DNA of 64,000 nt from a bacterium (GCA_965207065.1 OZ242260.1:736001-800000), one strand, 5' to 3'. Positions 36,644 to 55,344 are shown, numbered from the stretch's first letter. Program-made: numbers and translations. The notes: generated by a model from the letters alone, not told the origin.

Positions 36644-36722
36644 GCGATGTCCGTAATCAGATGCGCCCTGATGGTTCAGCCCCTATCCACACCGTGCCCG
36701 TGACCAAGAGGCGATAACTATC

Positions 36723-39008
36723 GTGCAACTGGATCGCTATATCGATGCCGTTATGCGTCATCGGTGGCTGGTAGTTGCGCTGGCCTTATCGATAATGATC
36801 ATCGCAGGGGCGGGCGGGCGCTTCATCACCGTTGCGAACGATTACCGCATTCTGTTCAGTGAAGACAATCCTCATCTCCTCGCTTTCGACGCGCTGGAGA
36901 ATACCTTTTCCTCATCCGACAACGCGCTTATCGCCATTGCGCCCAAAGGCGGTTCGGTTTTCACCAAGGAGGCGCTCGGCGTGCTCGAGGAGTTGAGCAA
37001 AGCCGCGTGGAAGACGCCGCATTCGAGCCGGGTCGACTCCCTCACGAACTATACCCACAGCCGCGCGGAGGGGGATGACCTGATCGTCGAGCCGCTCGTC
37101 GAAGACGCGGGTTCGCTTACAGAAACAGCCGTCTCGAGAATCCGGAAGATCGCGCTGGGCGCCACCGAAATCGCCGGACGCCTCGTCTCCCGTGACGGAC
37201 GCGTGGGCGGGCTGACGATCACTTTCAATCTGCCCGAAAACCAGGACCTCGCGGTGCGCGAGATAACCGATTACCTGAACGTGGTTCTCCAGAAGGCGCA
37301 CGCGAAACATCCGGACATTGCCTATTACATGACCGGCACCGTCGTCGTAAACCGGTCTTTCCAGGATGCCCCACAGGCCGAAAACAAGGTGCTGTTGCCG
37401 ATTGTGCTACTCGTCATCGTGAGTCTCACGATTATTCTCCTGCGCTCGTTTCTCGGCACTTTGGCGATCATGACCGTTATCATTTTCCCCATCGTTACCG
37501 CAATGGGATTCGCCGGCTGGGTCGGTGCGGTATTCAGTCCCACCAACGCCGGCGTGCCCGTCATCATCATGGTGATAGCTATTGCAGATGCTGTCCACAT
37601 CGTTTCGAGCACTCTTTTCGGCATGAGACGCGGTCTGGAAAAAGATGCCGCGATTGCGGAATCGATCCGCATCAACGCCTGGCCGGTGTTTCTCACCTCG
37701 CTCACGACGGCGATCGGTTTCCTGAGCCTGAACACCTCGGATTCGCCGCCCTTCCACGTCCTGGGCAATTGCGTGACGCTCGGCGTTTTGTGCGCTCTCG
37801 CCTACTCCCTGACGTTGCTGCCGGCGTTGCTATCGATTCTCCCGTTGCGCGCGCCTCGCCGCCGCACGAAGGGGTTAGACTTGTTCGAGCGCTTTGCCGA
37901 CTTCGTCATCTCCTGGCGCAAATTTCTGCTCGTGTTCTTCTCTCTGGCGGTGATTCTTCTGCTGACGGGTATCCCCCGCATCGAGCTGGGCGATGATCTC
38001 ACAAAATTTTTCGACGAGCGCTACCGTGTCCGCCGCGATACGGATTACATCTCCCAACATCTGACCGGCTTCGACAAGCTCGAATATTCCCTGAAAGCCG
38101 GGAGAGAGGGCGGTATTACCGATCCCGTATATCTGCGCAAGGTCGAGGCCTTCGCCGAATGGTACCGGCAGCAGCCGAAAGTGACCCACGTCCAGGCATT
38201 CCCGAACGTTCTGAAACGCCTCAACAAGAACATGCACGGCGACGACCCGGCCTTCTACAGGATCCCCGACGATCCGAAGCTCGCCGCGCAATATCTGCTG
38301 CTTTATGAGTTTTCCCTCCCCTTCGGCATGGACCTCAACAACCGCATCGATGTCTCTAAATCCACAACGCGCATGACCGTTACGATCAGGGACGCGACGT
38401 CGCGCGACCTGCGCACACTCGACAGGCGCGCACAGGCATGGCTCAGCGCCAATGCGCCCGGTTTCGCGCAGGAAGCATCCGGGCTGAGCGTCATCATGGC
38501 TCATGTCTCACAACGAAATATCAACAGCATGTTGAGCGGCACCATCATCGCCATGGCCCTCATTTCGCTCATCCTGATCTGGGTCTTCAAGAATCTCCGC
38601 ATCGGACTCATAAGCCTGCTGCCGAATTTCATCCCCGCGCTCATGACCTTCGGCCTGTGGGGCCATGTCGTCGGCCAATTGGGCCTGGCCTCCTCGGTTG
38701 TGCTCGGCGTTACCTTCGGAATCATCGTGGACGACACGATCCACTTCCTGAGCAAATATCTAAAGGCCCGGAGAGAGGAGGGACTCTCCGCACCCGAGGC
38801 CGTTCGCTATACCTTCCGCGCCGTGGGCCATGCGCTGTGGACTACGACCGTGGTCTTGTCAGCGGGCTTTCTGGTGTTCACCGCGTCGGGGTTCGAGCCC
38901 ACCCGGGTGCTTGGCCTCTTGGTAACGATCACGATTATCTTCGCGCTCCTGGCCGATTTCCTGCTTCTGCCAACCCTGCTGATGGCCATTGACCGGAGAA
39001 ATTCATGA
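36723..39008 (+). CDS. MMPL/RND family transporter, copy D (intact)
   Basis: 761 aa, collinear with copies A and B; AIADAVH and GIIVDDTIH. Confidence 0.9.
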   Translation: MQLDRYIDAVMRHRWLVVALALSIMIIAGAGGRFITVANDYRILFSEDNPHLLAFDALENTFSSSDNALIAIAPKGGSVFTKEALGVLEELSKAAWKTPHSSRVDSLTNYTHSRAEGDDLIVEPLVEDAGSLTETAVSRIRKIALGATEIAGRLVSRDGRVGGLTITFNLPENQDLAVREITDYLNVVLQKAHAKHPDIAYYMTGTVVVNRSFQDAPQAENKVLLPIVLLVIVSLTIILLRSFLGTLAIMTVIIFPIVTAMGFAGWVGAVFSPTNAGVPVIIMVIAIADAVHIVSSTLFGMRRGLEKDAAIAESIRINAWPVFLTSLTTAIGFLSLNTSDSPPFHVLGNCVTLGVLCALAYSLTLLPALLSILPLRAPRRRTKGLDLFERFADFVISWRKFLLVFFSLAVILLLTGIPRIELGDDLTKFFDERYRVRRDTDYISQHLTGFDKLEYSLKAGREGGITDPVYLRKVEAFAEWYRQQPKVTHVQAFPNVLKRLNKNMHGDDPAFYRIPDDPKLAAQYLLLYEFSLPFGMDLNNRIDVSKSTTRMTVTIRDATSRDLRTLDRRAQAWLSANAPGFAQEASGLSVIMAHVSQRNINSMLSGTIIAMALISLILIWVFKNLRIGLISLLPNFIPALMTFGLWGHVVGQLGLASSVVLGVTFGIIVDDTIHFLSKYLKARREEGLSAPEAVRYTFRAVGHALWTTTVVLSAGFLVFTASGFEPTRVLGLLVTITIIFALLADFLLLPTLLMAIDRRNS

Positions 39009-39036
39009 TGCGCCTTTCACGAGTGAGGACCCAATC

Positions 39037-40410
39037 ATGTCACGATCGACGCAAAGAGATACCTATGAAACGAAAAGAGTAGTCATTATTGGAGGAGGTG
39101 CGGCCGGGCTAAGCGCCGCTTACACACTCAAGAAGTACGGCATCAAAGCCGTCTTGTTCGAGGCTGGTGATCGCGTGGGCGGTCGCCTGGGCGGCGACAG
39201 GGTGGACGGTTTTTCCCTGGACGAGGGCGCGGACTTCTTCTGTTCCTCCTACGACGTTGCTTTTCGTATATGCGAGGAACTGGGATTGCCCCTGATTCGA
39301 TCGGATATGGACCTCGGCTGGTACAGAAACGGCCAGTGGATACGGACGACGCCAATCAAGTCCCTTCGCACTGCCGTCCAGAACATACCGGCATTCTGGA
39401 AGCTGGGGTTGTTATCTACCGGGTTCCTGATGCTGGCCAGGGCGGTCAAGGCCGACTCGGAATACCTGAATTTCGCCAGCGACTCGCGACTCGTCGAGCT
39501 CGACGGGGAGGAGAACGCCGGGGGCTACATGAAGAGAATGCGCTTGTCCGAATCCTTGAAAACGACGTTGCGGGGATTTCTGGAGATGACGATGGGCGAT
39601 GTCGATGAAATGGGCGCTGCGTACATCCGGACGTATCTCGCGGAAATGCTCCTGAAGTCCGACCAGATATACGTGCCCGAAAAAGGAGCCGGGGAACTGA
39701 CTCACGCCTTGGCCGATGCCTGCGGAGCCGAGGTCCGTGTCTCGACACCCGTCAACAAAGTCATCGTCCAGGACGGCGCCGTAAGAAGCGTGTTGCTGGA
39801 CGATGGTCCCATCGAGGCGGACGCGGTCATTTGCGCGACTTCCGCCTCGATGGTAAGTGGAATCATTCCCGACCTGCCGAGCAAAATTCGAAGCGCGCTC
39901 GGCACGGTACAATACTCACGCGGATGCCGGGTGGTGATCGGCCTCGACCATCGCCCGCTTCCCGAAGGATGGAACGGCGCGTTGTATCCCGAGGACGAGA
40001 CGCCCCTGCTGCTGGACCGGTCCATCAACCTGCCCGCTGCCGCGCCGCCGGGCAAAAGCACCCTCGACCTGCTCGTCGGCCGTGACCGCGCCGAAGAATT
40101 GTTTCCTCTTGACGATGAGGAAATCAAGCGCCGGATGCTGGCAGACGCGCGCCGGAACCCCCCTCCCGGCTCCAATCTCCCCGGCGACGACGAGGGCTTG
40201 TTCACCCGCGTGTACCGCTGGCCGGAGGCCGTGTGCATGGGCTTGCCCGGCATGTTCAAGGCGGTAGCGGAAATGCGTCTTCAACTCAAACGCGATGTCC
40301 AGAATCTCTTTCTTGCGGGCGACTACATGCGGATTCCCTGTGTGAACGGCGCCCTGGCCAGCGGCGTCGACGCAGCCGAAGAGGTTGTGGCGTTGCTTTC
40401 AGATCGTTGA
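39037..40410 (+). CDS. FAD-dependent oxidoreductase (amine oxidase / protoporphyrinogen oxidase-like)
   Basis: IIGGGAAGLSAA, EAGDRVGGR, LDEGA, LFLAGDY...NGALASG; start reassigned to ATG 39037 after GAGGA. Confidence 0.85.
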   Translation: MSRSTQRDTYETKRVVIIGGGAAGLSAAYTLKKYGIKAVLFEAGDRVGGRLGGDRVDGFSLDEGADFFCSSYDVAFRICEELGLPLIRSDMDLGWYRNGQWIRTTPIKSLRTAVQNIPAFWKLGLLSTGFLMLARAVKADSEYLNFASDSRLVELDGEENAGGYMKRMRLSESLKTTLRGFLEMTMGDVDEMGAAYIRTYLAEMLLKSDQIYVPEKGAGELTHALADACGAEVRVSTPVNKVIVQDGAVRSVLLDDGPIEADAVICATSASMVSGIIPDLPSKIRSALGTVQYSRGCRVVIGLDHRPLPEGWNGALYPEDETPLLLDRSINLPAAAPPGKSTLDLLVGRDRAEELFPLDDEEIKRRMLADARRNPPPGSNLPGDDEGLFTRVYRWPEAVCMGLPGMFKAVAEMRLQLKRDVQNLFLAGDYMRIPCVNGALASGVDAAEEVVALLSDR

Positions 40411-40486
40411 AGGCGACGTGCAATTTCCAGTACGGATTTTCGTCGTCTGGGCCGATTGCCGGGAGTGAATAAAGAAACTCCCGAGA

Positions 40487-42781
40487 CTACGACCTCTTCT
40501 TCAGGAGCGCCATGGCGACCCTGTCCGGCGTCAGGGGCAGGTCGTGGAACCGGACGCCCGTGGCGTCATGAATCGCGTTGGCGATGGCCGCCGCCGTGGG
40601 CACGGTCACCTGCTCCCCGACTCCCTTGGCCCCGTAAGGGCCGTTCGAATAGCCATCCTCCACGATGATGGACGCCACCCGGTCCGGCATGTCCTCGACC
40701 GTGGGTGCGAGATAGCCGTGCATGTCGGGGTTCTGCATCAGACCCTCGCGCTGAACGACCTCCTCCATCATGCAGAAGCCGACCCCCATGTAGACGCCGC
40801 CCTCGATCTGCTGCTCCACGCCCATGGGGCTGATGGCCCGGCCCACGTCGTGAGCGGCCCAGACGCCGGTGACCTCCACCTCGCCCGTCTCCTCGTCCAC
40901 GAGCACCTCGGCCACCTGGCTGCCGAACCCGTAGATCTCATACGGCTCGCCCAGGCCCGTCTCCTTGTCGGTTTTCGCGGGCGGCGGAATGCTGTCCGCG
41001 GCGCCGATCTGCTTGAGTTCGTCGGCGACATACGCCTTCGCTATTTCGGCAAGCGTGATCCGGGTTTCCGCATGCGAGCGCGAGCGAACCACGCCGCCGC
41101 GAAGCTCCAGATCCGCAGGGTCCGCCTCCAGCAGAATCCCGCCCAGGCGCAGCAACTCCTCGCGCGCCTTGATGGCGGCGTTGTAGACCGCCTTGCCGCC
41201 CTGCATGGTTATGCGCGAACTCGAACTCGTGCCGCCGAAGGGGTCGATGGCGGTGTCCACGCTCTCCATCAGGAACTCGGAATAGGGAATGTCCAGCGTC
41301 TCGGCGGCGATCTGGCAAAGCACCGTCTTGCTGCCCTGGCCGAAATCCACGACGCCCGCGGCCACCTGCACCTTGCCCTCCGCCGTGAGGAAGACGTGCG
41401 CCTCGGCCGGGGAATACGCGTTGCCCGTGCCGTAGAGGCAACTCGCCACCCCGCGACCGCGCAAGCGGCCGTCTTTGGTTCTTCCGTTTCCCCCGCTTCC
41501 CCAGGATGAGGCCCGCTCCACTTCCTTCAGCGTATCGAGAAAGCCCACGCTCTCGGGCAAATGCTGGTTCCAGGCCGTCCTGGCGCCGACGCGCAGCCCG
41601 TTCACGCGCCTGATCTCGATGGGGTCCATTCCCAAAACCCTGGCGAGTTCGTCCATCTGCTGCTCGCCCGCGAAGTGGACCTGGGGGCATCCCGGCCCGC
41701 GCATCTGACCCCCGTAGGGGTGGTTCGTGTGCACGCAGTGGACGTCCACCTTCACGTGGGGCGCCTGGTAGGGTCCCGCGGCATGGTAGGTCGCGCGCTT
41801 GAACGCAGGCGGGTTGTCCCCCCCGTTCGCCACGTACGCCCCCTTGTCCAGCCACACTTCCACCTGAACGGCTACGAGACGTCCGTCCTTCGTCGCTCCC
41901 GTTTTCGAGCGGATGAAAGAGGCGTGGCGCTTGGTGGAGGCTATCATGCTCTCCTCGCGCGAATAGACAAGCTTCACGGGCCTGCCCGCGGCGCGGGCGA
42001 GGACGGCGGCGCGCAGGCACACGTCGAGGCTCGCCTCGCTCTTTCCGCCGAAAGCCCCGCCGGTGGTCGTCTGGACGAAACGAACCGAACTCTCGCCCTT
42101 GAGGCCCAGTATGCGGGCGACGTTCTGCCGCACCAGGAAGGGCTGCTGGGTCGAACCCCAGATTTGAACCCCGCCGCCGGGGTTGGGGCTCGCGCAGGCC
42201 GCCTCCACTTCGAGATAGAGGTGATCGATGGAGGGCGTGGAGTACTCGTTCTCGACGATGACGTCGGCCTTCCCGAAGCCCTCCTCGACCTCCCCTTTCC
42301 GTATCTTCGCCTGGTTGAGCACGTTGCCGCCGGGGAAGATGACTTCCGCGTCTTCTTCCATCGCCGCGCGTGGACAGGAGACGACGGGCAGTGGCCGGTA
42401 TTCGACCTGTATCAGCCGCGTCGCCGCCTCGGCCGCCTCTGGCGTCTCCGCCGCGACGAGGGCGACCACCTCGCCCATGTAGCGCACCCTGTCGTGGGCG
42501 ATGACGGGCATGGCCCGATTATGGGCGGTGATGCAGGGATGGTCGGCCAGGTCGTCTCCCGTGAGAACGGTGACGACGCCGGGGACGCGCAGCGCCTCGC
42601 TCGCATCGACCGAAACAATCCCGGCGTGCGCGTGTTCGCTGCGGAGCGCCTTGCCGACCAGCATTCCCGGAAGCTGGAGGTCGTCGAGATAATCCGCTGT
42701 GCCCGCCGCCTTTTCGGGGTCGTCCAGAAAGGGAAGGGACTCGCCGACTACGGCGCCGCCCATGTCTTTGGCTTCCGCCAT
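40487..42781 (-). CDS. Xanthine dehydrogenase family molybdopterin-binding subunit
   Basis: 764 aa; GGAFGGK, MRGPG, DFGQGS, EQQIEGG, GAKGVGE. Confidence 0.9.
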   Translation of the reverse strand: MAEAKDMGGAVVGESLPFLDDPEKAAGTADYLDDLQLPGMLVGKALRSEHAHAGIVSVDASEALRVPGVVTVLTGDDLADHPCITAHNRAMPVIAHDRVRYMGEVVALVAAETPEAAEAATRLIQVEYRPLPVVSCPRAAMEEDAEVIFPGGNVLNQAKIRKGEVEEGFGKADVIVENEYSTPSIDHLYLEVEAACASPNPGGGVQIWGSTQQPFLVRQNVARILGLKGESSVRFVQTTTGGAFGGKSEASLDVCLRAAVLARAAGRPVKLVYSREESMIASTKRHASFIRSKTGATKDGRLVAVQVEVWLDKGAYVANGGDNPPAFKRATYHAAGPYQAPHVKVDVHCVHTNHPYGGQMRGPGCPQVHFAGEQQMDELARVLGMDPIEIRRVNGLRVGARTAWNQHLPESVGFLDTLKEVERASSWGSGGNGRTKDGRLRGRGVASCLYGTGNAYSPAEAHVFLTAEGKVQVAAGVVDFGQGSKTVLCQIAAETLDIPYSEFLMESVDTAIDPFGGTSSSSRITMQGGKAVYNAAIKAREELLRLGGILLEADPADLELRGGVVRSRSHAETRITLAEIAKAYVADELKQIGAADSIPPPAKTDKETGLGEPYEIYGFGSQVAEVLVDEETGEVEVTGVWAAHDVGRAISPMGVEQQIEGGVYMGVGFCMMEEVVQREGLMQNPDMHGYLAPTVEDMPDRVASIIVEDGYSNGPYGAKGVGEQVTVPTAAAIANAIHDATGVRFHDLPLTPDRVAMALLKKRS

Positions 42782-43183
42782 GGCATGCTCCCAATGAGAA
42801 GAGAACCAAGAAATGATAAGTCGCTGAATGAGCCGTCAATCTACATGCTCGGGCGTCGTTTGTCTATGAAATCGGGGGGTCAATTCCGAGCGAGGAGGGA
42901 GGAATTGCAAGCCGGTGTGTTACTTATCCGCAAGCGATCGCTTCTTACGAAACCGGCTCGAATACGAGTTCCGGCACGATCACCTCCCAGGCGTCGCATC
43001 GTATGGAGTCGTGATACTCCGGTTTGGAAGCCTCACGGCTCCACCCGGTGACGGCCCACACTTCGGCGGAGCGGCAACGGGTTCCGGGCGGCGGCTGGAA
43101 ACCAGCGGCGAGGCTTTCATCCTTGGGGAACAGCCTCGATGAGGGAAGGGAGTGCGCGGCTATATCAAGGGACAGTGGAACTA

Positions 43184-43633
43184 TTAGCTAGCTCTCCCGT
43201 TCGGCAAATTGTCCTTTTCGCTGTCGAAAAATTCACGAATTGTGGACAGAACATCGTCGGGGCGCTGTAGATGGCACTCCCAAACGGTCAAGACCCTCCA
43301 ACCGTCGGCTTCCAGAGAAGCAGCGTTTTCCCGATCTCGAATCCGGGTTCGCTCCAGCTTTGGTTTCCAATAAGCAAGATTAGACTTCGGCAGCCCCGCT
43401 ATCGGGCAATTCGGATCCGGATGCCAATGCCAGAAACAACCATTGACGAAGATCACCGCACGGTGGCGAGGAAGAACCAAATCAGGCCTCCCGGCCATTC
43501 CGCGCCGATGAAGCCGAAAACGATATCCAAGGCGGTGAACCATTGAGCGGACTATTCGTTCGGGTTTCATATCCTGCGAACGAATCCGGGACATGCACCA
43601 AGATCGATCTTGCGGACTCAGATTGTCTGCCAT
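43184..43633 (-). CDS. vsr: Very short patch repair endonuclease
   Basis: 149 aa; MADNLS..RSWCMSRIRSQDMKPE, GRPDLV, FVNGCFWH, GWRVLTVWEC. Confidence 0.95.
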   Translation of the reverse strand: MADNLSPQDRSWCMSRIRSQDMKPERIVRSMVHRLGYRFRLHRRGMAGRPDLVLPRHRAVIFVNGCFWHWHPDPNCPIAGLPKSNLAYWKPKLERTRIRDRENAASLEADGWRVLTVWECHLQRPDDVLSTIREFFDSEKDNLPNGRAS

Positions 43634-43639
43634 TTCAAA

Positions 43640-44401
43640 TCACTGCGCTGCGACCCCATTGACGGCGAGTTCGGCCTCCTCCCGCAACAATCGGTCAAGG
43701 GCTGTATCCGGCAGTGCATCTAACAGCACAACACCGCCTCTGCGGTTTAGGGCAATCATCCAGTTTCGAAAGACGTCTCGTTCAAACAACTCGCCACCGT
43801 TCGCCCAGTGCTCTCGCATCACTGCATATATAGCGCGCAGAAGCTTTTGGTTCATCGATACCGACGGGCGTTCAATCAGCGCCGAACGAACATCTTGTCT
43901 ATGCAGAAGTATGGTCAGGAATTCGCCTGGATGCTCGGGGTCAACATCGTGGGCTATCTTTCCTAGCCACCATAATCGCGAAACCCCGTTATCTCGAATC
44001 ACCGCCCTGTTTCCCGCTGCGAAGAAGTGATTTAGAACTTCGCGGACTGCCTGCTCATTGTCGTCCGGGCGCTGCTTCAGCCACCGCGCAGAAACATATT
44101 GCGGGCAGTCAAAGTGGCACAGATAAACCCACATCCGTTCAATGGACGCCTGATGCGGGGTCAGATCTCGCAATGCGTTGTAGGCAACCAGTGCGTTAAA
44201 AACATCGGTTGCCGAGGGCTGTGGATCATCGACGGAAAGTTTTTCGGCAAGCTCCGGTGCTTCGATTGTTGACTCCCTAGAACCGCCGAACGAAGCCGGA
44301 TGAATAGAGTTGACCGGATCGTAATACCAATCAAGACGATGTTGGACGGTTCGCCTAAGGCTTTCGAGCGTATTGATCGTGCAATAGCGGAGTTTCATCA
44401 T
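43640..44401 (-). CDS. Uncharacterised protein, DUF6339-like
   Basis: 253 aa; ERMWVYLCH...RW and RDNGVSRLWW motifs, which I associate with DUF6339 from memory. Confidence 0.6.
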   Translation of the reverse strand: MMKLRYCTINTLESLRRTVQHRLDWYYDPVNSIHPASFGGSRESTIEAPELAEKLSVDDPQPSATDVFNALVAYNALRDLTPHQASIERMWVYLCHFDCPQYVSARWLKQRPDDNEQAVREVLNHFFAAGNRAVIRDNGVSRLWWLGKIAHDVDPEHPGEFLTILLHRQDVRSALIERPSVSMNQKLLRAIYAVMREHWANGGELFERDVFRNWMIALNRRGGVVLLDALPDTALDRLLREEAELAVNGVAAQ

Positions 44402-45264
44402 GAATTATCCATCTCGGCACGCTCAATCAGCGGCATCCTCGGAAAGGGGGAGTCAAGCACCTTTTGGGCGTCAACTAGGCGGTTCGAATTATTTTCCCCC
44501 AAAGGTGAACACCCCACAGCTTCAAGGCGCTGGTCGAGAGAGGAAAACCACCGAAACTCTCGATAAACTTCGGAGTCTTGGTCGACTTCATTTAATACGG
44601 CTATCAATGCGGGCAAATAGAGACCATTCATAAGGTATTGCCCTTCAGGTTGGTTGCCGACATGTTCCCGCGCTATGCCATATTGCCGGGAATCTGCATC
44701 TGACATCACAATATAAATACGATCTTCTTCCAGTTCATATTTCCAACGACCGTCTGCAATATTCGAGCGGGATTTGTGTGAAAAAATTGAACCAAGCGGC
44801 GCTTCATCTGCCGTATCGATCCAGTAGTCTTTAGGAACGTCTTCAGCAAGTACGGCACCCGGCTCGATGTCAAATTTCCGTCCGGCAAAATCAGAGTGCC
44901 ATCCTTCCGCGTAAAAATCTAAAAGAGCCTCGATACACACCAAGAATGGGGCAAACTCCACTCGGCCCGATAGGAAGCCTGCGGGGAACGAGTGTTGGAT
45001 ATTTGGTTGGCTTGACTGTAAGAGTTGCCGACAGTGCGTCTGCGAAGACCTGATCAGCAGCGCAAACTGCGCCTTGTTCTGCTTCAAGAGTTCAAGGAGA
45101 CTTGGTTCGCTGAGTTCGAAGAAAGCATCCACTTTGACCGCAGTGCTCTTTATGGTGCGCTTAACTTCAATTTCGACTTCAAACTCCGTGCGCGGGTAGT
45201 CGTCGCCGTAGCTGGATGGCCGTAAAACTGGATGCGGCCAAGCTTTGCCGGGATCGAACTTCAT
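44398..45264 (-). CDS. Uncharacterised protein
   Basis: 288 aa; N-terminal WPHPVLR...DDY; ATGA overlaps with both neighbours support a real gene. Confidence 0.75.
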   Translation of the reverse strand: MKFDPGKAWPHPVLRPSSYGDDYPRTEFEVEIEVKRTIKSTAVKVDAFFELSEPSLLELLKQNKAQFALLIRSSQTHCRQLLQSSQPNIQHSFPAGFLSGRVEFAPFLVCIEALLDFYAEGWHSDFAGRKFDIEPGAVLAEDVPKDYWIDTADEAPLGSIFSHKSRSNIADGRWKYELEEDRIYIVMSDADSRQYGIAREHVGNQPEGQYLMNGLYLPALIAVLNEVDQDSEVYREFRWFSSLDQRLEAVGCSPLGENNSNRLVDAQKVLDSPFPRMPLIERAEMDNS

Positions 45265-47231
45265 ACCTCATTCCCTTCCGTTGTCAGAGCAGCAGACAGA
45301 CGCCAAGCCCTGCCGTCAATCGGTTCGTCAGCAGTGATTTCAATCACGGTTCGCTGGCCTTTCTTTACGCGAACCCGATCAAGCGAAATATCTGGAGTTA
45401 CTGCACGAACGTCATTGCGTGGTATCGGAGATGAATCGCCGGCCTCAGCGAGAATCAAACGGGCAATTCCGTCAGCTTCAGACAAGAAGCTAAGCTGGGA
45501 ACAATTTTCCCGTCCTGCAATCGGAAGGATCCGGACTGCCGAAACGGGAATGCCCTGCCGATTGCTGCTTCCTCCGCGTGTTCCAGTACCGCCTCGACCT
45601 CCTCCGTCCCCCTGTCCTCCGTCACCCTCACCACTACCGTTTTTGCCAGTTCCCGCGCCTCCCTCGTTGCCAATATCTTCGCCGTCGCCCTCTGTGTTTG
45701 AGCCGTCATTTTCCGGCAACCTAGGCGGCACGGGTCTGCGGACCGGTTTGAGTGAAATAGTTACCTTATCTCCAAAGCCTGGTTCGCTATCACCTTCGTC
45801 CTTCTCGGAGCTGGAATCATCGAAAGATTCTTCTGGTTGGTAATCTGGCAGGTACTGTGAGAGTTCTGAGAGTACAGTCCTTCTTCCTCCCTCCGGTGGG
45901 CCAGCATGTTTTCTGATCTCGCTGCGAACCCAAGCGGTTATACGTTTGAGCGCCTTACGGCCTCGCTCTTGTTCTTCTTGAGGCAGTCGTTCTGGTTCGA
46001 ATTGATCGTGTTTTGGATTCTCCATCCTACGCAGGAGCTCATTTCCTTCCGGGTCTTCAAATACACAAAGCGCTGCAAAATCACGAAATCCAGGAAACCG
46101 TAGCAACCCATTTTGTCGGGTAGTCACTAGCATTCCAGTGTTGCGTATGAACGCAACCTTGCCGGGCAACCCATCATCTGTACGAAGCCAAAGCTTGCAA
46201 TGTCCGAGATCGACGTCTTGTTTTTCCACAATTGGCTCACCTTTTGATAATTCCCAAAAGATTTGAGCATCCTGCAGCGTATTGTCAGTTACGGTCTCCG
46301 AGTTCTCCGGGTCATCCGCTTCGATCAAATGCTGGAACCAATCGTCAATGGTGTTACGTTCTATCTCCATGAGATCGGTGAGGTCATCTGGCTCCACGAG
46401 AACAGTCAACCGTCCCGTTCCAATTGCAAAGAAAAAATTTTCAATAACGCTCGCCGCTATGCGATTGCGCCAGTTTTCAGTTTCCCGAAAACCCATAATT
46501 GTCAGGCATGCGCCTTGTTGCGGAAGGCGGGCTTTGTTGAGTACGCGAAATTGGGCTGGGATTTGTTCTGTTAATTCTAAACCTAGTAACTCTCGACACT
46601 CTTTCTTGAATCCATAGAAACCCGTACCTTGCGTTTCGTTTCCACCCGCGTCGCGGTGCGACATGAGAACTGATTTTCCCTGGAATTTTTCCTGATTCTT
46701 GCCGTTCTCAGAAAAATAGGTCCAATAAAAAACCGTCCTCAGCTTCGAGACCGCAAATGGAGCATACTTTCCGATGCCATGTGAACCTCCTGCGCCTTGT
46801 CCTGCCAACTCCGGTTTGTAGCTGACTCCTTGCTTCTTGACGAGATTACTCCAGTGTTCGCCTCGCAGCCCCGTCGTATTGCGGTCAGATACTCGCAGAC
46901 AAGGAATTTTTTTCGATTTTATACTCCGTTCCGCTTCTTGCAGAGGTGCTACAGCAATCGTATCGTTGCTGTCTTTAGCAATTTGCAAACATGCGACAAT
47001 CGCACTTGCGAGTTCGCCCCGGCCAACGATTTCAGGATCTAGGTCAACCAGTTCAAAAGACACATACACCGGGCTGTCTAGCGAAAGACGGGCATCGAGA
47101 GAATTCTGTATCGCCTCTCGTGCGAGACTCGCCAAGGGGGCTCCAGTAAAATGAGCTATGCCTGGGTCATTAAAACCTGCACTCATGCCACCGTTCGTTG
47201 GCGGAAAATGCCAACCGATAGATTCATTCAT
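45261..47231 (-). CDS. GHKL (HSP90/MutL/MORC-like) ATPase-domain protein
   Basis: 656 aa; REAIQNSLDA (N box), SDRNTTGL (G1), GGSHGIGK (G2); acidic Gly-rich linker before a C-terminal domain of about 90 aa. Confidence 0.75.
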   Translation of the reverse strand: MNESIGWHFPPTNGGMSAGFNDPGIAHFTGAPLASLAREAIQNSLDARLSLDSPVYVSFELVDLDPEIVGRGELASAIVACLQIAKDSNDTIAVAPLQEAERSIKSKKIPCLRVSDRNTTGLRGEHWSNLVKKQGVSYKPELAGQGAGGSHGIGKYAPFAVSKLRTVFYWTYFSENGKNQEKFQGKSVLMSHRDAGGNETQGTGFYGFKKECRELLGLELTEQIPAQFRVLNKARLPQQGACLTIMGFRETENWRNRIAASVIENFFFAIGTGRLTVLVEPDDLTDLMEIERNTIDDWFQHLIEADDPENSETVTDNTLQDAQIFWELSKGEPIVEKQDVDLGHCKLWLRTDDGLPGKVAFIRNTGMLVTTRQNGLLRFPGFRDFAALCVFEDPEGNELLRRMENPKHDQFEPERLPQEEQERGRKALKRITAWVRSEIRKHAGPPEGGRRTVLSELSQYLPDYQPEESFDDSSSEKDEGDSEPGFGDKVTISLKPVRRPVPPRLPENDGSNTEGDGEDIGNEGGAGTGKNGSGEGDGGQGDGGGRGGTGTRGGSSNRQGIPVSAVRILPIAGRENCSQLSFLSEADGIARLILAEAGDSSPIPRNDVRAVTPDISLDRVRVKKGQRTVIEITADEPIDGRAWRLSAALTTEGNEV

Positions 47232-48279
47232 TTAAGGCCACCTCACGAATTAGAATCTCTGCGCACAAACTCCCCACCAAACGTGCAAGGCCAACGCAAA
47301 CTGCATTTCCCAGCAAACGATACTGTTCACTCGAAGGCATGTCAGGAAAAAGTTCGTCTGTGCCGTCAAAGCCCTGAAACCGCGCCACCTCATTGATGCT
47401 TAAACGCCGGATCCCCCACTGATCACGAACAAACGGAACATTATGCCCTCCTATTCCCATGTTCGCTGTCAGTGTCGGGCATAGCCCCAGTTTTTTTTCT
47501 CGAACGTATGAACGCCTTAATTGGTAGATGTTCGCATCCGACTCACCTTCATCCATCGCTTTGGCAATCATCTTGAAATAGCGGTTGTCAGGGGGCAGAT
47601 AAGTTCCATTCTCACCAGGCTTCTTGCGGTTGACAAAATCTTCGAGAGGGCGCTTCGTAGCCCCTAATCCGTTAGAAGTGAGAGGAGGCGAGAATGGGTT
47701 GTAAGTAAATCTCCTTTTTGATGCCGCGACCATGAATAGCCGTTCGCGATCCTGCGGCAAATTAGTCGCTTCTTTTACGTTTATGGTCCAACACGACTCC
47801 TCTCGAAACCAGTACCCGGCCCGGCGCAATGCGCGGCGAATCTGATCAAACCAAGCCCCTTTTTCTCCGTGGAGGATGTGGGGCACATTCTCCAAAAGTA
47901 TCAACGAAGGCCGCTTCTCCGGCGGATACTCCTCGATCAGGCGCGGAATCTCGAAAAATAGCGCCCCCCTTGGGTCTTCGAATCCCAAGCGGCCTCCCGC
48001 CTGAGAAAAACTCTGGCAAGGAAATCCCGCAGCTAACAAATCAACTTCATTTAAGCCGTCCGCCTGGACAGACAGCTCACGCACATCCTTGTTGATCACG
48101 GGAACGCCGGGGAAGCGGTACTGGAAAGTAGCACATGCAAATTCATCATTGTCGCTGGCCCAGCGAATCGCAAAACCAGCTTTAACCAGCCCGGACGCAA
48201 ACCCCCCCATGCCGCTGAATAAGCAACCTGCAGTTATTGCGCCGGCTTCGGCAGGCGACGAAGCGCCGTCCACCCTCAT
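47224..48279 (-). CDS. dcm: DNA (cytosine-5)-methyltransferase
   Basis: LFSGMGG (I), GFPCQSFS (IV), LENV (VI), QDRERLF (VIII), RFQGF (IX), GNAV (X); start uncertain, ATG 48279 preferred over 48441; the symbol denotes the family, not CCWGG specificity. Confidence 0.92.
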   Translation of the reverse strand: MRVDGASSPAEAGAITAGCLFSGMGGFASGLVKAGFAIRWASDNDEFACATFQYRFPGVPVINKDVRELSVQADGLNEVDLLAAGFPCQSFSQAGGRLGFEDPRGALFFEIPRLIEEYPPEKRPSLILLENVPHILHGEKGAWFDQIRRALRRAGYWFREESCWTINVKEATNLPQDRERLFMVAASKRRFTYNPFSPPLTSNGLGATKRPLEDFVNRKKPGENGTYLPPDNRYFKMIAKAMDEGESDANIYQLRRSYVREKKLGLCPTLTANMGIGGHNVPFVRDQWGIRRLSINEVARFQGFDGTDELFPDMPSSEQYRLLGNAVCVGLARLVGSLCAEILIREVALNE

Positions 48280-48655
48280 GGCGAACGGCCCTGATGCGAC
48301 CGGAGAGTTGCCATGTCGTAATTGGTCCTCACCTAATCGGAGCCTGCGGATCGGCTCGCGCCGTGAACGAGGACATGCGTTCGAATGTATCGCGGGGAAA
48401 CGTTCGTCGAAGGGACGAGTCGAAGGGTAAAACGGTCTCACCGGCTGCGGTCGCGCCGATGGCTGGGCCTTCCGTTTCCGCCTGTAATTCGGGCGTGTTC
48501 CTCGTGATGAGACAGATTATACCCACGAAAATCGTAACCGCGCAAGAGGAGCGCCGTCGCGCCGGCTGTGTGATACTGAGGCGGTGGAACCATCGCCCGA
48601 CGGGAAGAACGGCCCTTCGCGGGCGCATCGACGAACGCCGAAATGGAACAACGGG

Positions 48656-49402
48656 ATGCTTGACGCCGCCACCATCATCGCCATCGCCGGAACCTTTCTG
48701 CTCGCAGGCGCGGTCAAAGGGGTCATCGGCCTCGGCCTTCCCACGGTGAGCCTCGCCGTTCTGGCGGTGGCGCTCAACCTGACGAACGCGATGGCCCTGC
48801 TCCTCGTGCCTTCGTTGGTGACCAACGTCTGGCAGGCGGTGGTCGGCGGCCACGGCTGGTCGCTTCTGCGCCGTATCTGGCTGTTCCTGCTGGTGGCGGC
48901 GGTCACCGTGCGGCTGGGGGCGTCCGCGCTGACGCGCGTCGATTTCTCGCTGCTGACCGCGCTCCTCGGGTTGCTGCTCGTGGCGTACGCCGCCGCGAAC
49001 CTGCTCGGGTTGCGATTCCAAGTCCAGGCCCGCCATGAAAAATGGATGGGCCCGCTGGCCGGACTCGTGAACGGCGTTCTGACGGGCATGACGGGGTCTT
49101 TCGTCGTGCCGGGAGTGATGTACTTACAGGCGCTCGGCCTCTCGCGCGACGCGCTGATTCAGGCGATGGGAATGCTCTTCACGGTATCGACGCTGGCGCT
49201 CGGGTTCGCGCTTCAGGCCAACGACCTGCTGCGGATGGAGCACGGCGTCCTCTCCACCGTGGCCCTTGCGCCGGCGGTGGCGGGCATGGTCATCGGGCAG
49301 CGAATCCGGAGCCGGCTCTCAGAGCAGCTGTTCCGGAAAATCTTCTTCCTCTCCCTCCTCGCGCTGGGCGCCTACCTCGCCTCCCGCGCGTTCGGGGGCT
49401 GA
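48656..49402 (+). CDS. Sulfite exporter TauE/SafE family protein
   Basis: AGAVKGVIGLGLP, PSLVTNVWQ, GVLTGMTG, about 8 TM; start reassigned to ATG 48656. Confidence 0.85.
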   Translation: MLDAATIIAIAGTFLLAGAVKGVIGLGLPTVSLAVLAVALNLTNAMALLLVPSLVTNVWQAVVGGHGWSLLRRIWLFLLVAAVTVRLGASALTRVDFSLLTALLGLLLVAYAAANLLGLRFQVQARHEKWMGPLAGLVNGVLTGMTGSFVVPGVMYLQALGLSRDALIQAMGMLFTVSTLALGFALQANDLLRMEHGVLSTVALAPAVAGMVIGQRIRSRLSEQLFRKIFFLSLLALGAYLASRAFGG

Positions 49403-49545
49403 AAGAAGCAGACTGCTCACCGGCGAATCAGGGCGAAGGGCGCTCTTGAGCCCCGATGAATCCGGCTCGTCCCGTGAGGAGGCGGGGCGCATTTGCTCGC
49501 ATCTGCCCGTGGCGGCGAAGTTCCGGCTCAGGTATGGTGTCGCTT

Positions 49546-49738
49546 CGCAATGAAATCGATAAGGAAAAATGAATTTCCGTAAATATCGATAAAATCAGAT
49601 AAATTAACGGGGTAATTCGATAAATTTCTGAAAATTAAATTGTTGGGAAAAGACGCCGCCGAACCGCGACGCAGGGGAATATTGCCATGGCCCGCGGCTC
49701 CCGCGATAACTGCGAATGCGGGGAAATGCGGGGAAATG
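49546..49738 (+). repeat. Dispersed non-coding repeat, copy 2
   Basis: (C/A)GATAAA at 49587, 49597, 49618; GACGCAGGGGAATATTGCCAT; GCGGGGAAAT twice. Confidence 0.85.
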
Positions 49739-49764
49739 CACACTCGACCGGAGGAATCCAGAAG

Positions 49765-50436
49765 ATGCAGGAACGAGGAAATCCGGCGCGCGCGCTGTTT
49801 CCCGAAATACCGCAAGTCGTTGATTTATATGAGCGAGAAACGGAAGGCCTCCCCGAGGAGGTATTGCGCAGAACGAGAGAGGAGAAGAGCTGGGGCCTGT
49901 GGTCCATCCGGGATCAGGCGAGCCACGTGGCTTCTCTACCCTACCGGTGGCTGCTGATTCGCTGGGGGAAAATACTCTTCGGAGACGACCTCCCGCGCGA
50001 TAAGGAACTCTTCGAGCGCTTCGACGGGCGAATGATGAAAGAGGCGTATTGCCCGCAGATTCAAGACCTTATCGGCGTCATGCGGGACTCGTTCGCTCTC
50101 GCCTGGGAGGTGTTGGGAGCCGAGACGACCGAATCCATCCGCGACGGGAGACATATCACAGAGCGGGTGCCGCACGGCAAGATACGGCCCGGAACCGGCG
50201 AGGACGTGCGCGAATGGCGCGAAAACGTCACCCTCAAGGCCCATGACACCGGCGTTTGGATCGACCCCGACGATGCGGAGCTGTTTCACTTCAACCTCGA
50301 ATACACGTTCCGACACATGCTCTGGGAAGCGTATGCGCATCTCAAAACCATCCAGATGCACAAGAAAGAGGAAGGCCTGGAGCCGCTCGTCCAGATACCG
50401 CAAGAGGGTTACATCCGTGTGCTGAGATGGGAATAA
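49765..50436 (+). CDS. DinB/YfiT-like protein
   Basis: WSIRDQASHV and HMLWEAYAHLKTIQ fit the DinB four-helix pattern; ATG 49765 follows GGAGGA. Confidence 0.6.
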   Translation: MQERGNPARALFPEIPQVVDLYERETEGLPEEVLRRTREEKSWGLWSIRDQASHVASLPYRWLLIRWGKILFGDDLPRDKELFERFDGRMMKEAYCPQIQDLIGVMRDSFALAWEVLGAETTESIRDGRHITERVPHGKIRPGTGEDVREWRENVTLKAHDTGVWIDPDDAELFHFNLEYTFRHMLWEAYAHLKTIQMHKKEEGLEPLVQIPQEGYIRVLRWE

Positions 50437-50503
50437 AAACAATATAAACAAACAGTTTCGGGAATAGCATCTTTCGCATCCAAACCCTGGAGGACATTCT
50501 AAG

Positions 50504-51067
50504 ATGGTCGAAAGCATCAATTATCCCTGGCATGAAAGCTCTGTGCCCGGCGAGCGGCCGATCGATAAACCCGAACTTCCAAAAGACGGTTATGAGATCA
50601 CCATGCTCGCAAAGACGGAAACGATGGACGATGGACAACTCAAAATCGGGCGATTCCGGCACTTTGAAGTTTTCAGCGACGAACCGCCACGCATCGGAGG
50701 AGAGGACAGGTATCCACAGCCTCTCACTTACATCGCCATGGGAGTCGGCTTCTGACTGTTGACCCAGCTTGGGCGGTACGCCCATATGACGAAAACGACA
50801 TTCGAGAAGGCCACCTGCCGCGTGGAATTCGATTATTTCCTGAAAGGTTCCGTCCTCAAGGGCGATGTGAATTCTGGATGCCGGAGGGTGCGCACGCATT
50901 TCAAAGTCGAATCGAACGAGACGGAAGAGAAAATCCTGAACATCATTCAATTGGCGAAACAGGGCTGCTATGCCGAGCAGATGGTTCAGACGGCCGTTCC
51001 GCTCACGAGCACGGTTGAGTTAAACGGAAAAAACCTTGAACTGAAAGGAATTACGGACACGAATTGA
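50504..51067 (+). CDS. OsmC/Ohr-family protein, probable selenoprotein (TGA 50753-50755 read as Sec)
   Basis: ORFs 50504-50755 and 50759-51067 are in frame; read-through gives DEPPRIGGEDRYPQPLTYIAMGVGF-U-LLTQ ... AKQGCYAE, with U at the first catalytic Cys position. Confidence 0.8.
50756..50800 (+). promoter_or_regulatory. Candidate bacterial SECIS element
   Basis: Hairpin TGGGC-GGTAC-GCCCA at 50770-50784; G-leading loop begins about 19 nt after the TGA. Confidence 0.6.
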
Positions 51068-51085
51068 CGCGGACGAGAGGGTTTC

Positions 51086-51161
<76 letters not shown>

Positions 51162-51341
51162 AGTATGTGGAGCAATCAACGGACAACCAAGGGTTGTTCC
51201 TTATCGACTCATTTGCCCCAAAAGGCAAGAGTTTCCATGCCTTTACGGGAAAGACGGGATTCTAAAACGCCCCAACCCGGGCGTCAACACGAAAACGCTT
51301 TTCGCTCTTGATGTGAAAGGCCTCCTCCCCATGGCAGGAAG

Positions 51342-52355
51342 ATGGTAAAACAGCCTCCATTTCCAGTGGGTAAACTTCCGCCAGATGTACTGGATAATCT
51401 GCTCAAGAGCGCAAGTTCGCACCCGCGTCTTGTAGTGGGTCCAAAGATTGGAGAAGACGCGGCCGTCATCGACATGGGAGACCGCTATCTCATCGCGAAA
51501 TCAGACCCCATCACGTTTGTGGAACACCACATCGGCCGCTATGCCGTACACGTAAACGCGAACGACATCGCCTGCATGGGCGCTACTCCTTTGTGGTTCC
51601 TGATGACCCTGCTTCTGCCGGAAGGACGCGCTGATGAGGCGATGATAAGCCGTATCTGGAAAGAGGTGGAAAATACTTGCGACGATTTGGACATCACCAT
51701 ATGTGGCGGACATACGGAGATTACCTCGGGACTGGAATTTCCGATTCTTTCGGGCCACATGCTGGGGGAAGTATCGAAGGAGAATCTGGTACGCGGCGCA
51801 GACGCACAAGTAGATGATTTAATTCTGCTTACGCGTCCCATACCTGTGGAGGGAACGGCTATCCTGGCGGATGCGAAATACGATTTTCTGAAAAACCACA
51901 TGGATGTCGAGATCTTGGAAAATGCGAAAAAGACCCTGGAATCTCCCGGCATCAGCGTGGTGGCGCAAGCTTTGGCGGCGGCCGGTACAGGCCAGGTGCA
52001 CGCGATGCACGACCCGACCGAAGGAGGGCTGGCCACCGGCATCCATGAAATGGCGGAGGCCGCCGGCCTGGGAGCCATTGTTGAGGAGAACAACATACCC
52101 ATTTCCTTTGAAGGGGGGAAGATTTGCAAGGCATTGAATCTGGACCCTTTAGGTGTCATTACATCGGGAGCGCTTTTGCTGGCGGTTCCGGCGGAAGGGG
52201 AAGAAACCGTTCGGGAAACGCTCATGGCGACGGGTGCAATGGGTGTGCAAATCGGCAGGTTATGCGCCCCTGATTCAGGAGTTGTGATTCAGCGCGACGG
52301 AAAAACTTCTCCGCTTAGGCGTTTTGATTCCGACGAAATTTCAAAAGTGCTGTAA
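51342..52355 (+). CDS. AIR synthase-related protein (PurM/HypE/ThiL superfamily)
   Basis: 337 aa; GKLP, GEDAAV, KSDPIT, NANDIACMGA, GGHTE, MHDPTEGGL. Confidence 0.85.
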   Translation: MVKQPPFPVGKLPPDVLDNLLKSASSHPRLVVGPKIGEDAAVIDMGDRYLIAKSDPITFVEHHIGRYAVHVNANDIACMGATPLWFLMTLLLPEGRADEAMISRIWKEVENTCDDLDITICGGHTEITSGLEFPILSGHMLGEVSKENLVRGADAQVDDLILLTRPIPVEGTAILADAKYDFLKNHMDVEILENAKKTLESPGISVVAQALAAAGTGQVHAMHDPTEGGLATGIHEMAEAAGLGAIVEENNIPISFEGGKICKALNLDPLGVITSGALLLAVPAEGEETVRETLMATGAMGVQIGRLCAPDSGVVIQRDGKTSPLRRFDSDEISKVL

Positions 52356-52365
52356 GGGAGCGAGG

Positions 52366-52950
52366 ATGAAACGAGCCATGGAGGGTGTGCTGCTCGATTT
52401 TGACGGCACGCTCACGAAACCCGCCTTTGACTGGCCCGTCATGAAAGAGGAGATGGGATTGCTCGACGGGGAGGTATCGATACTGGATTATCTCCCAACG
52501 CTCTCTCCCGAAAGAGCGCGTGAAATATCGGATATCCTTGAAAAACATGAACTTAAAGCCGCCGATATCGCGGAGGCCAACGATGGCTCGCATGCTTTGA
52601 TTGCGTACCTGCGAACCAGAAAAATCCCCTTCGGCGTCGTTACGAACAATGCGGAGCGGCATGTTCTGAAAATGGTGAAAAAAATAAATATCTCTTTCGA
52701 AGTCCTGATCACCCGGGATATCGGCTACTGGAAGCCGGACCCGAGACCCATGCTCGCAGGCGCCGAGGCGATCGGCGTATCGCCTGAAAAATGCGTCGTC
52801 ATCGGCGACGGGAAATACGACATGATGGCCGCCAAAGCGGCGGGAATGTTGTCGGTCCACCTGACGGAACGCTCCTCGATTCCCAGTGATCTGACGCTTC
52901 GCAGCCTCCGGGATGCGCCTGCCCTGCTCAAACAACTGATTGATAAATAA
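52366..52950 (+). CDS. HAD family hydrolase
   Basis: DFDGTL, VTNN, KPDP, IGDGKYD; start ATG 52366 or 52378. Confidence 0.9.
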   Translation: MKRAMEGVLLDFDGTLTKPAFDWPVMKEEMGLLDGEVSILDYLPTLSPERAREISDILEKHELKAADIAEANDGSHALIAYLRTRKIPFGVVTNNAERHVLKMVKKINISFEVLITRDIGYWKPDPRPMLAGAEAIGVSPEKCVVIGDGKYDMMAAKAAGMLSVHLTERSSIPSDLTLRSLRDAPALLKQLIDK

Positions 52951-53380
52951 AGACTTGGGGCACGCCCTTTTGGGACATGCCCCATGGTGGAAGGAATCCG
53001 CCCAACTCGGGCGAATCGTTTGGCGAGATGTCAGTGAATCAGCATCGGGGGACCCTTCAACTGACCACCGGGGAGAAAAGGCTCCTCTTTTGCAAGGCGC
53101 CCATTGAGGGCAAAAGGTACACACCCTTATATATTGCACAAATCGTGCCAAAGAAGAACATTCTACGGCTAAAAACAAAACAAGCGCATAATGATAATGA
53201 TATCAGTCAGATACAATTTCTACACAGCGCGATAATCTCAGGATATACGCCCCTCAGGTTCCGGCGGGCGGCATCACACTTTGACTATTATTCGGGAACG
53301 GGAGGCCCCGGTCTGACAATATGTCAATCCAGGACCCGGATGAGTTCCGCCGAAGCCGGAAATTATGGCAGTTATATGAT

Positions 53381-53569
53381 AATTCCCCGCAACTCCCCGC
53401 TTTTGCCGTCATCGGGGCAGGCACGGACCGTGGCAGAATTCCCCTGCGCCGCGCGATGCGGTTGCATCTTTTCCGAAGAAAACCTCATCATTTAATTACC
53501 GGAAAACCTCGTGAATTTATCGAATAACCCCGTGAATTTATCTATATTTATCGAAATTATTATTTGCAT
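53381..53569 (-). repeat. Dispersed non-coding repeat, copy 3 (inverted)
   Basis: Reverse complement reads CGATAAATATAGATAAATTCACGGGGTTATTCGATAAATT...GGCGCAGGGGAATTCTGCCAC...CGATGACGGCAAAAGCGGGGAGTTGCGGGGAATT. Confidence 0.85.
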
Positions 53570-54983: not shown

Positions 54984-55296
54984 GTGATTCTGGGCAGGCG
55001 CACGGGGATTCACTGGAGCCGCCGGTTCGCGCGCCGGGGCTGGGTACGTGAACGCCGGGGCCATGGGGCGTCCGGCCATCTACGGGCGAACATGCGTCTG
55101 GTATGCTACGCTATCCACGGGCGCGGACCGGCTGGAAGTGGGGCATGTTCCGGTCCGCTACGATCACGAGGCGCTGGTTCGCGAAATGGCGGGAGAGGGC
55201 ATCAGTGAAGAGTTCGTCACGACGATTCGCACCGGGTGGTGGACCACCAGCCTGGAGCCCCCGCCGGGCAGGGAACGGGCTCGCGGGCGCTACTGA
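54984..55296 (+). pseudogene. C-terminal remnant of a metallophosphoesterase-like gene
   Basis: TGIHWSRRF..GWV, frameshift, NAGAMGRPA..GRTCVWYA..YDHEAL..EEFVTTIRTGWWTT; N-terminus missing; family from memory. Confidence 0.5.
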
Positions 55297-55344
55297 GGGT
55301 CCGTGGTCCCGGCTTTCCTCCGGTACGCCAACCGGGAGGCGCCG

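Follow-up and report, generated by a model that had tools for sequence, protein, structure and literature searches.

We describe a five-gene operon in a stretch of bacterial DNA (GCA_965207065.1 OZ242260.1:736001-800000) that encodes a C5 cytosine methylase, three proteins that we call A, B, and C, and a Vsr very-short-patch repair endonuclease. We read this operon, with a probability of about one half, as a restriction-modification (R-M)-like defense module in which an effector complex built around a MutL-like ATPase acts on unmarked DNA. Supporting evidence includes a gene order that recurs across several phyla, the close co-divergence of the methylase and A, and a pattern of gene decay that falls mainly on A. 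The operon is conserved and laterally mobile, and the family to which its central trio belongs is large, spanning bacteria, archaea, plasmids, and a phage genome. Since 2008, GHKL ATPases that share loci with a cytosine methylase and Vsr have been predicted to be restriction-like machines (accessible text of PMC2292703). Our literature search found no biochemical account of a methylase-Vsr-linked GHKL ATPase, and no characterized fold or motif is recognized in two of the core trio. Throughout, "the window" denotes the whole stretch of 64,000 nucleotides (nt), given as one strand, with positions counted from its first letter.

Layout and composition of the operon

Five minus-strand genes, all intact, occupy positions 43184-48279 of the window. 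They and the region upstream of them are as follows.

47224..48279, minus strand: C5 cytosine DNA methyltransferase, 351 amino acids (aa) from the ATG at 48279; PF00145 at 6.8e-53, TIGR00675 at 189 bits
45261..47231, minus strand: protein A, 656 aa, PDC-M33A; PADLOC model PDLC04582 at 1.4e-104, AlphaFold2 (AF2) model, Foldseek
44398..45264, minus strand: protein B, 288 aa, PDC-M33B, with an ATGA overlap on each side; PADLOC model PDLC04583 at 4.3e-42, AF2 model
43640..44401, minus strand: protein C, 253 aa, DUF6339, PDC-M33C; PF19866 at 1e-42, PADLOC model PDLC04586 at 1.6e-42
43184..43633, minus strand: Vsr (very-short-patch repair) endonuclease of 149 aa, separated from C by 6 nt; TIGR00632 at 135 bits, PF03852 at 2e-25
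48280..48583, no strand: divergent intergenic region between the methylase and TauE genes, the presumed promoter region of the operon; read from the sequence

A preliminary description of this DNA had claimed a co-oriented, AT-rich block of five genes, with overlaps of 8, 4, and 4 nt and a final gap of 6 nt, set between unrelated molybdenum (Mo)-enzyme and TauE genes, and every part of that claim is confirmed. Reading the junctions, we find that the methylase and A overlap by 8 nt (ATGAATGA), that A/B and B/C each meet in a 4-nt ATGA overlap, and that 6 nt separate C from Vsr. The GC content of the operon is 0.518, against 0.588 for the window and 0.625 and 0.570 for the two flanks; it is the window's minimum, with 0 of 236 sliding 5096-bp windows equally low. 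The neighboring genes are that of a molybdopterin-cofactor enzyme, on the minus strand at 40487..42781, and that of TauE, on the plus strand at 48584..49402.

Protein A is a divergent GHKL ATPase

Protein A is a divergent GHKL ATPase with a MutL-like layout, a conclusion that we draw because Foldseek matches it to GHKL proteins and its ATP-binding motifs are invariant, yet no Pfam GHKL family recognizes it. Its AF2 model (pLDDT 65.8; confident in ~31-445 and 560-650) comprises a conserved N-terminal strap (residues 1-30), a GHKL ATPase with a transducer-like middle domain (~31-445), a disordered linker rich in Gly, Asp, and Glu (446-558), and a beta domain (~560-650). Foldseek aligned this model with 142 PDB chains at E<=1e-3, and all matches listed are GHKL proteins, among them Topo VI-B (4.1e-7), TRAP1/Hsp90 (1e-6), MLH1 (6.8e-6), and GyrB (1.4e-5), with ParE and MutL also matched. 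The alignments extend over 400-560 columns onto GHKL plus transducer fragments of MutL, GyrB, ParE, and Topo VI-B, which suggests that the middle domain of the model is transducer-like; their TM-scores (0.22-0.31) are low, since each chain aligns only in part.

Among 14 family members whose identity falls as low as 23%, the ATP-binding residues E39, N43, and D46, D116, T119, and G121, and G149, G152, and G154 do not vary, and these we take to be the N-box (ExxxNxxD), the DxGxG-like G1, and the GxxGxG G2 of the Bergerat motifs. R363, M367, and an E404-P406-H408 motif in the middle region are invariant in the same members. The GHKL identity that the preliminary description had assigned to the 656-aa protein is thus supported by both the fold matches (E 4e-7 to 1e-5) and the invariant motifs. 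No Pfam GHKL family matched A at E<=0.1 or the 14 family members at E<=5, and A has no family in Pfam, NCBIfam, or PHROGs; ESM Atlas returned only "hypothetical protein" clusters for residues 1-450. We scored 617 relatives at E<=1e-3, and among the matches listed all are unnamed or "hypothetical." A search for longer, fused forms of A found none, which is weak evidence.

Conserved gene order and co-divergence in related loci

The preliminary description had proposed a survey of gene order across genomes. Scanning one genome per species, mostly metagenome-assembled genomes, we obtained 57 pattern matches, of which 40 were confirmed, in 38 loci whose gene content was scored by tblastn. The same methylase family lies directly upstream of A in 34 of the 38 loci and Vsr lies downstream of C in 28; the complete methylase-A-B-C-Vsr set, in the order of the window, is present in 27. 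By their record titles, the hosts belong to Chloroflexota, Acidobacteriota, Alpha- and Gammaproteobacteria, Spirochaetia, Poribacteria, Actinomycetota, Binatia, and Thermodesulfobacteriota. Because one order recurs in so many loci of several phyla, the five-gene set is more than a chance assembly.

Distances among the methylases track those among the A proteins (Mantel r 0.916 over the 19 loci in which neither gene is broken; none of 5000 permutations reached this value), so that within this clade the methylase link is real. The target-recognition region of the methylase is among its best-conserved parts in the clade (0.92 in block 261-280), and this conservation, together with the co-divergence, fits one fixed specificity that travels with the trio.

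The four loci outside the methylase-A arrangement differ from one another. L020 has A-B-C with a different C5 methylase 1.6 kb off on the opposite strand; A lacks its 5' end in L029; and L037 is a short contig with a truncated small open reading frame (ORF) ahead of A (a weak trace, L037:3-113). In L038, from Bacteroidales, a small ORF, A, B, and C are followed by an unrelated C5 methylase and then by proteins of 194 and 622 aa that belong to no Pfam family; these genes share one strand, and most of them overlap (L038:6049-13339). Separately, L014 carries a second, unrelated C5 methylase-Vsr pair (L014:2722-4199; 33% and 41% identity) ~4 kb upstream of its methylase-A-B-C block, which itself has no Vsr.

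Gene decay falls mainly on A

Among the 38 loci, A is broken in 15, the methylase in 3, B in 2, Vsr in 1, and C in 0. A thus takes 15 of 21 breakage events although it makes up 0.386 of the operon's length (binomial P 0.0024, the events being incompletely independent). Seven of the broken copies were lost by transposase insertion or truncation (L009, L013, L021, L025, L029, L033, and L036) and eight by frameshift or nonsense mutation (L011, L016, L017, L019, L028, L030, L031, and L032). The transposases in or directly after A are of many kinds (DDE_5, IS66, DDE_Tnp_1, DDE_3, IS21/IS110, and Mu-like); elsewhere, one lies within B at L010 and one within the methylase at L033. In all three loci with a broken methylase (L030, L033, and L036), A is broken as well. 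Such a pattern would be expected of a system in which A is costly or dangerous and the methylase protective.

The methylase and Vsr

Both enzymes at the ends of the operon are full-length family members above curated cutoffs, which bears out the preliminary claim of a methylase with its C5 motifs and an intact Vsr. The methylase covers positions 6-319 of the 324-position PF00145 profile and scores 189 bits on TIGR00675, against a cutoff of 100.65. Its translation shows FxGxG, PCQ, ENV, and GNAV, which we take to be the standard C5 motif strings, and its closest solved relatives are M.HhaI and M.HaeIII. An alternative start, a GTG at 48441, would give an ORF of 405 aa (47224..48441). The ATG at 48279 is the likelier start, because the extension between the two contains 2 in-frame stops in L001, the closest relative, and because homologues are mostly 336-373 aa long. 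Vsr spans positions 1-118 of the 119-position TIGR00632 profile (135 bits against a cutoff of 97.85), and across 17 clade members its residues D51, H69, H71, and C66 do not vary. It is the only nuclease recognized in the operon.

Proteins B and C

B is predicted by AF2 (pLDDT 81.4) to fold into an N-terminal beta-sandwich (~28-187) and a C-terminal helical domain (189-286). It belongs to no Pfam, NCBIfam, or PHROGs family, and no conserved acidic or histidine cluster was found across its family. Foldseek found no PDB match to its model at E<=1e-3, and in BFVD only three at that threshold, all generic Ig/FN3-like sandwiches with TM<=0.27 and hence uninformative. In the structure comparison that the preliminary description had proposed for the central proteins, A yielded a GHKL fold and B no informative match.

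C is a DUF6339 protein, and the profile of that family matched 1814 representative clusters at E<=1e-3. W91, R106, F127, and W145 are invariant family-wide, and H96, D170, R178, and R212 nearly so. C had no match among PDB sequences and no usable match in ESM Atlas; the longer DUF6339 proteins (336-355 aa) have no additional Pfam domain.

B and C probably form one unit, because natural fusions of the two exist. P0186 (528 aa) aligns with the B profile in hhalign at a probability of 99.8 and E 4.6e-30 and also carries DUF6339, and P0275 (541 aa) combines 61% identity to B with a PF19866 domain; a search for longer forms of B found only a B-C fusion. Complex prediction with A(1-455), B, and C gave a score of 0.02 and a mark of 0.32, values that weigh neither for nor against binding. 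When the profiles of B and C were aligned with that of Vsr and with each other, hhalign probabilities stayed below 1%, so neither protein is a detectable Vsr-type nuclease and the two are not detectable paralogues. Both single-sequence and profile searches of PDB chains with A, B, and C gave only low-complexity or chance matches. In Pfam, NCBIfam, and PHROGs, DUF6339, on C, was the only family matched among the central three, and the absence of a recognizable nuclease or helicase there, as noted in the preliminary description, stands.

Plasmid, phage, and archaeal forms of the trio

Searching with A by tblastn, we recovered 25 plasmid records (27-33% identity) and 2 phage records, and the A-B-C trio was present every time in the distant contexts that we examined (nine plasmid and one phage). 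A conserved ORF of ~75 aa lies immediately upstream of A on plasmids of Deinococcus, Arthrobacter, Paenarthrobacter, and Priestia and in phage NatCom_9291 (L039, L041, L042, L045, and L046; mutual tblastn E 1e-9 to 1e-20), where it holds the operon position taken by the methylase in the window. It has no Pfam family, and no homologue of it was found in the window or in methylase-linked loci. The trio is therefore separable from methylases.

Methylases are nonetheless frequent companions: 7 of the 10 plasmid and phage contexts have one of the C5 type no more than 6 kb away, and no C5 methylase was found in the 6-kb flanks in Lactococcus, Ligilactobacillus, or Halobacterium DL1. The Lactococcus trio is flanked by two D12 N6 methylases with AlwI and the Ligilactobacillus trio by type I genes. 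On haloarchaeal plasmids (L043 and L048) one strand carries dcm, then a pair of unannotated genes that belong to no Pfam family (257 and 508 aa), and then A, a longer B of 356 aa, and C. A dcm-vsr pair stands upstream of the trio on the Deinococcus plasmid, and in NatCom_9291 the trio adjoins a phage integrase, with a C5 methylase fused to a helix-turn-helix domain downstream. C5 methylases from unrelated lineages have joined the trio independently several times and at differing positions (L038, the haloarchaeal plasmids, the phage, and Deinococcus). On the Deinococcus plasmid, an opposite-strand gene for a NOV_C (DUF3883, PD-(D/E)xK-type) protein separates dcm-vsr from the small ORF-A-B-C block (L039:4139-5284).

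Genes for a Shedu nuclease, AbiGI/GII, and type II enzymes such as AlwI also lie near distant trios, and a type I S+M pair is found immediately upstream. The defense context that the preliminary description had proposed to look for is accordingly present for the wider family but not for the operon of the window. Its claim that the trio is tied to 5-methylcytosine (m5C) fares similarly: it is supported by the methylase association in this clade, but elsewhere the trio occurs with the small ORF and no operonic methylase.

Comparison with known systems

The preliminary description did not recognize the gene set as a named system. The trio is, however, already listed as the PADLOC candidate PDC-M33 (A 1.4e-104, B 4.3e-42, and C 1.6e-42), with residues 1-636 of A aligned to positions 1-603 of the 627-position PDLC04582 profile. 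PDC-M33A/B/C were the only PADLOC matches in A, B, and C at E<=0.1, with no restriction-enzyme model among them, and the genes are contiguous in A-B-C order. Because of this full-length match, the trio must be regarded as an unpublished candidate rather than an unrecognized system; PDC-x entries are called "unpublished candidate systems" in the accessible text of PMC11811056. By the names of its hidden Markov models, PDC-M33 is a three-gene candidate, and the form in the window adds an operonic C5 methylase and Vsr. As far as our searches show, with supplementary tables and PADLOC documentation outside their reach, neither the five-gene methylase/Vsr form nor the small-ORF form is in print, nor are the B-C fusions or the decay pattern; within the same limits, no paper naming the DUF6339 family was found.

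One published precedent is the set of GHKL-containing R-M operons predicted by Iyer, Abhiman, and Aravind in 2008. The accessible text of their study (PMC2292703) describes MORC/paraMORC proteins, ATPases with a GHKL and an S5-fold transducer domain that, like A with its transducer-like middle region, are encoded with a cytosine methylase and a Vsr-superfamily nuclease, with a wide, patchy, and laterally mobile distribution and a proposed R-M-like role. A differs in matching neither Pfam HATPase_c_3 nor any GHKL Pfam model and in its partners, B and a DUF6339 protein; the paraMORC1-5 sequences lay outside this comparison. The two-component-like HEF_HK/Response_reg_2 loci (Bellieny-Rabelo et al. 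2021; accessible text of PMC8011034) share a C5 methylase, a divergent GHKL protein, a small partner, and a Vsr directly downstream, but PF19191 and PF19192 match none of A, B, and C at E<=0.1.

Tiamat, as described in the accessible text of bioRxiv 10.64898/2026.09.30.754977, likewise places a GHKL-family ATPase in antiphage defense and often near methylases, although these are mostly adenine-modifying; it is a single gene with a NOV_C / PD-(D/E)xK nuclease, whereas A has no NOV_C and PADLOC assigns it only to PDC-M33A. MutL, known from Escherichia coli repair with Vsr and MutH, shares layout and fold class with A, which is also encoded with Vsr, but A has no NCBIfam or Pfam MutL match, its C-terminal beta domain is small, no MutL endonuclease motif was recognized in it, and the trio also occurs without Vsr. 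In classical type II dcm-vsr-restriction endonuclease cassettes, too, a C5 methylase and Vsr bracket restriction-like genes, and the decay that we observe fits a toxic restriction part. The operon of the window differs from them in having no recognizable endonuclease, three genes including an ATPase standing in place of one restriction enzyme: no PD-(D/E)xK, HNH, PLD, or GIY-YIG domain was found in A, B, or C with Pfam, PADLOC models, and PDB profiles, or with Foldseek for A and B.

Proposed mechanism and alternative explanations

In the mechanism that we propose, the C5 methylase would mark one fixed short sequence in host DNA, and Vsr would repair the T:G mismatches arising from m5C deamination; because of that activity, Vsr would offset a cost of the methylase rather than serve as a weapon. 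A would act as a MutL-like GHKL ATPase, with an ATP-gated N-terminal clamp, a flexible linker, and a C-terminal domain, and together with the B-C unit would constitute an ATP-dependent effector against DNA lacking the mark. We infer that A, B, and C share one complex, that this complex damages or blocks unmethylated DNA, and which of its parts could be catalytic: the E404-P406-H408 motif in the middle domain of A, or C. On this account, as in the preliminary description, the three central proteins would be one ATP-dependent effector that reads m5C. The mechanism predicts that the methylase is essential only when A is intact, that there is a single fixed methylation site, and that B and C form a unit.

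A broader proposal, which we offer tentatively, is that A-B-C is the restriction arm of an uncharacterized class of R-M-like immunity, in which a GHKL clamp and two other subunits replace the endonuclease and self-protection is interchangeable between a C5 methylase with Vsr, as in this clade, and the ~75-aa protein of plasmids and prophages. If this were true, the family would show how methylation-independent defense is turned into R-M by methylase capture, or the reverse. The two natural architectures, with methylase or with small protein, allow one to ask how self-protection is swapped, and an effector that proved to be a new nuclease or a nonnucleolytic DNA clamp would be a new mechanism for restriction biology.

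Several observations weigh against a methylation-based defense module. Neither Pfam, NCBIfam, and PHROGs nor PADLOC restriction endonuclease models and PDB profiles revealed a nuclease, helicase, or other effector domain in A, B, or C, and Foldseek revealed none in A or B. PDC-M33 is a candidate only, and our literature search found no paper naming it. The neighbors of the operon in the window are housekeeping genes and not a defense island, and its synteny with L001 indicates that the operon is old at this site and no recent arrival. Some of the eight frameshifts in A may be assembly errors, four of them lying in a Gly-rich repeat. The 38 loci sample near relatives only, because they were found through two A-derived peptide patterns. 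The trio also exists with a small ORF where the methylase would stand, as it does on plasmids, in the prophage-like phage, and at two genomic loci, and because some trios have neither an operonic nor a flanking C5 methylase, methylation cannot be the universal self-protection of the family.

The main alternative is that the trio is methylation independent, sensing infection or DNA structure under some other self-control, such as the small upstream protein, while the methylase and Vsr are a co-traveling orphan module. It accounts for the small ORF-A-B-C form on plasmids and beside an integrase in a phage genome, agrees with PADLOC's definition of PDC-M33 by three genes only and with the lack of any recognized sequence-reading or nuclease domain in A, B, and C, and is helped by the Arthrobacter, Paenarthrobacter, and Priestia plasmids, where the nearby dcm is already paired with its own restriction enzyme. 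We nevertheless consider it rather unlikely for the operon described here, given the translational coupling of the methylase and A through their 8-nt overlap and the upstream methylase in 34/38 loci, their co-divergence (r 0.916), the independent capture of unrelated C5 methylases at other operon positions, and the confinement of methylase breakage to loci in which A is broken.

The resemblance of A to mismatch repair proteins invites another explanation, in which the operon is a methylation-plus-repair cassette dedicated to m5C damage: A would load or stimulate Vsr at T:G mismatches, and B and C would be accessory DNA-binding factors. The MutL-like architecture of A, with MLH1 and MutL among its fold matches, the status of Vsr as the sole recognized nuclease of the operon, and the housekeeping surroundings of the operon in the window all suit this explanation, and Escherichia coli MutL interacts functionally with Vsr (as cited in the accessible text of PMC2292703). 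It sits badly with the 10/38 loci that lack Vsr, six of which keep A, B, and C intact (L014, L018, L020, L034, L035, and L037), and with distant trios that have no operonic dcm or vsr and are neighbored by Abi, Shedu, and R-M genes or carried by a phage; PADLOC, too, lists the trio as a defense candidate. That A should be the gene most often destroyed, with methylase and Vsr left intact, would also be odd for the helper of a mutagenic methylase, and we judge a dedicated repair role distinctly improbable. Least probable of all, in our assessment, is modification-dependent, type IV-like restriction, with the trio attacking foreign-modified DNA and its own methylase serving an unrelated role. The trio can indeed stand without a methylase, and the invariant residues of C are mostly aromatic or arginine and could perhaps suit a base-reading pocket, but translational coupling to and coinheritance with a methylase would be unexpected for a modification-dependent enzyme, and Pfam found no modified-base reader domain (SRA, PUA, YTH, and the like).

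Genomic site of the operon

Synteny between L001 and the window extends over 36001-53525, and the L001 Mo-enzyme gene is 92% identical to that of the window, against 83% for the operon. Upstream of the methylase, the noncoding sequence at 48312-48460 is ~95% identical to L001, above the level of the operon, and may be either host flank or a conserved regulatory region. A promoter scan called no sigma-70-like site in 48280..48583, and the counts of the promoter and terminator scan were not above those in shuffles. We also considered a 12-codon leader ORF (48277-48314) that stands behind a Shine-Dalgarno-like AGGTGAGGA and shares an ATGA overlap with the methylase start; it is probably due to chance, because it is not conserved in L001. 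Just 3' of Vsr, the window has ~268 bp (42880-43147) that the otherwise syntenic L001 does not have.

Farther along the window, two long ORFs overlap on opposite strands at 55111-57171; the plus-strand ORF is a real gene with DAK2, FakA-like, and DegV domains, and the minus-strand ORF, of 671 aa, has no family. The sole tRNA of the window, a tRNA-Phe (GAA), lies on the minus strand at 51086-51161, and the GC content of 49250-53500 is 0.51-0.60, below that of the left flank.

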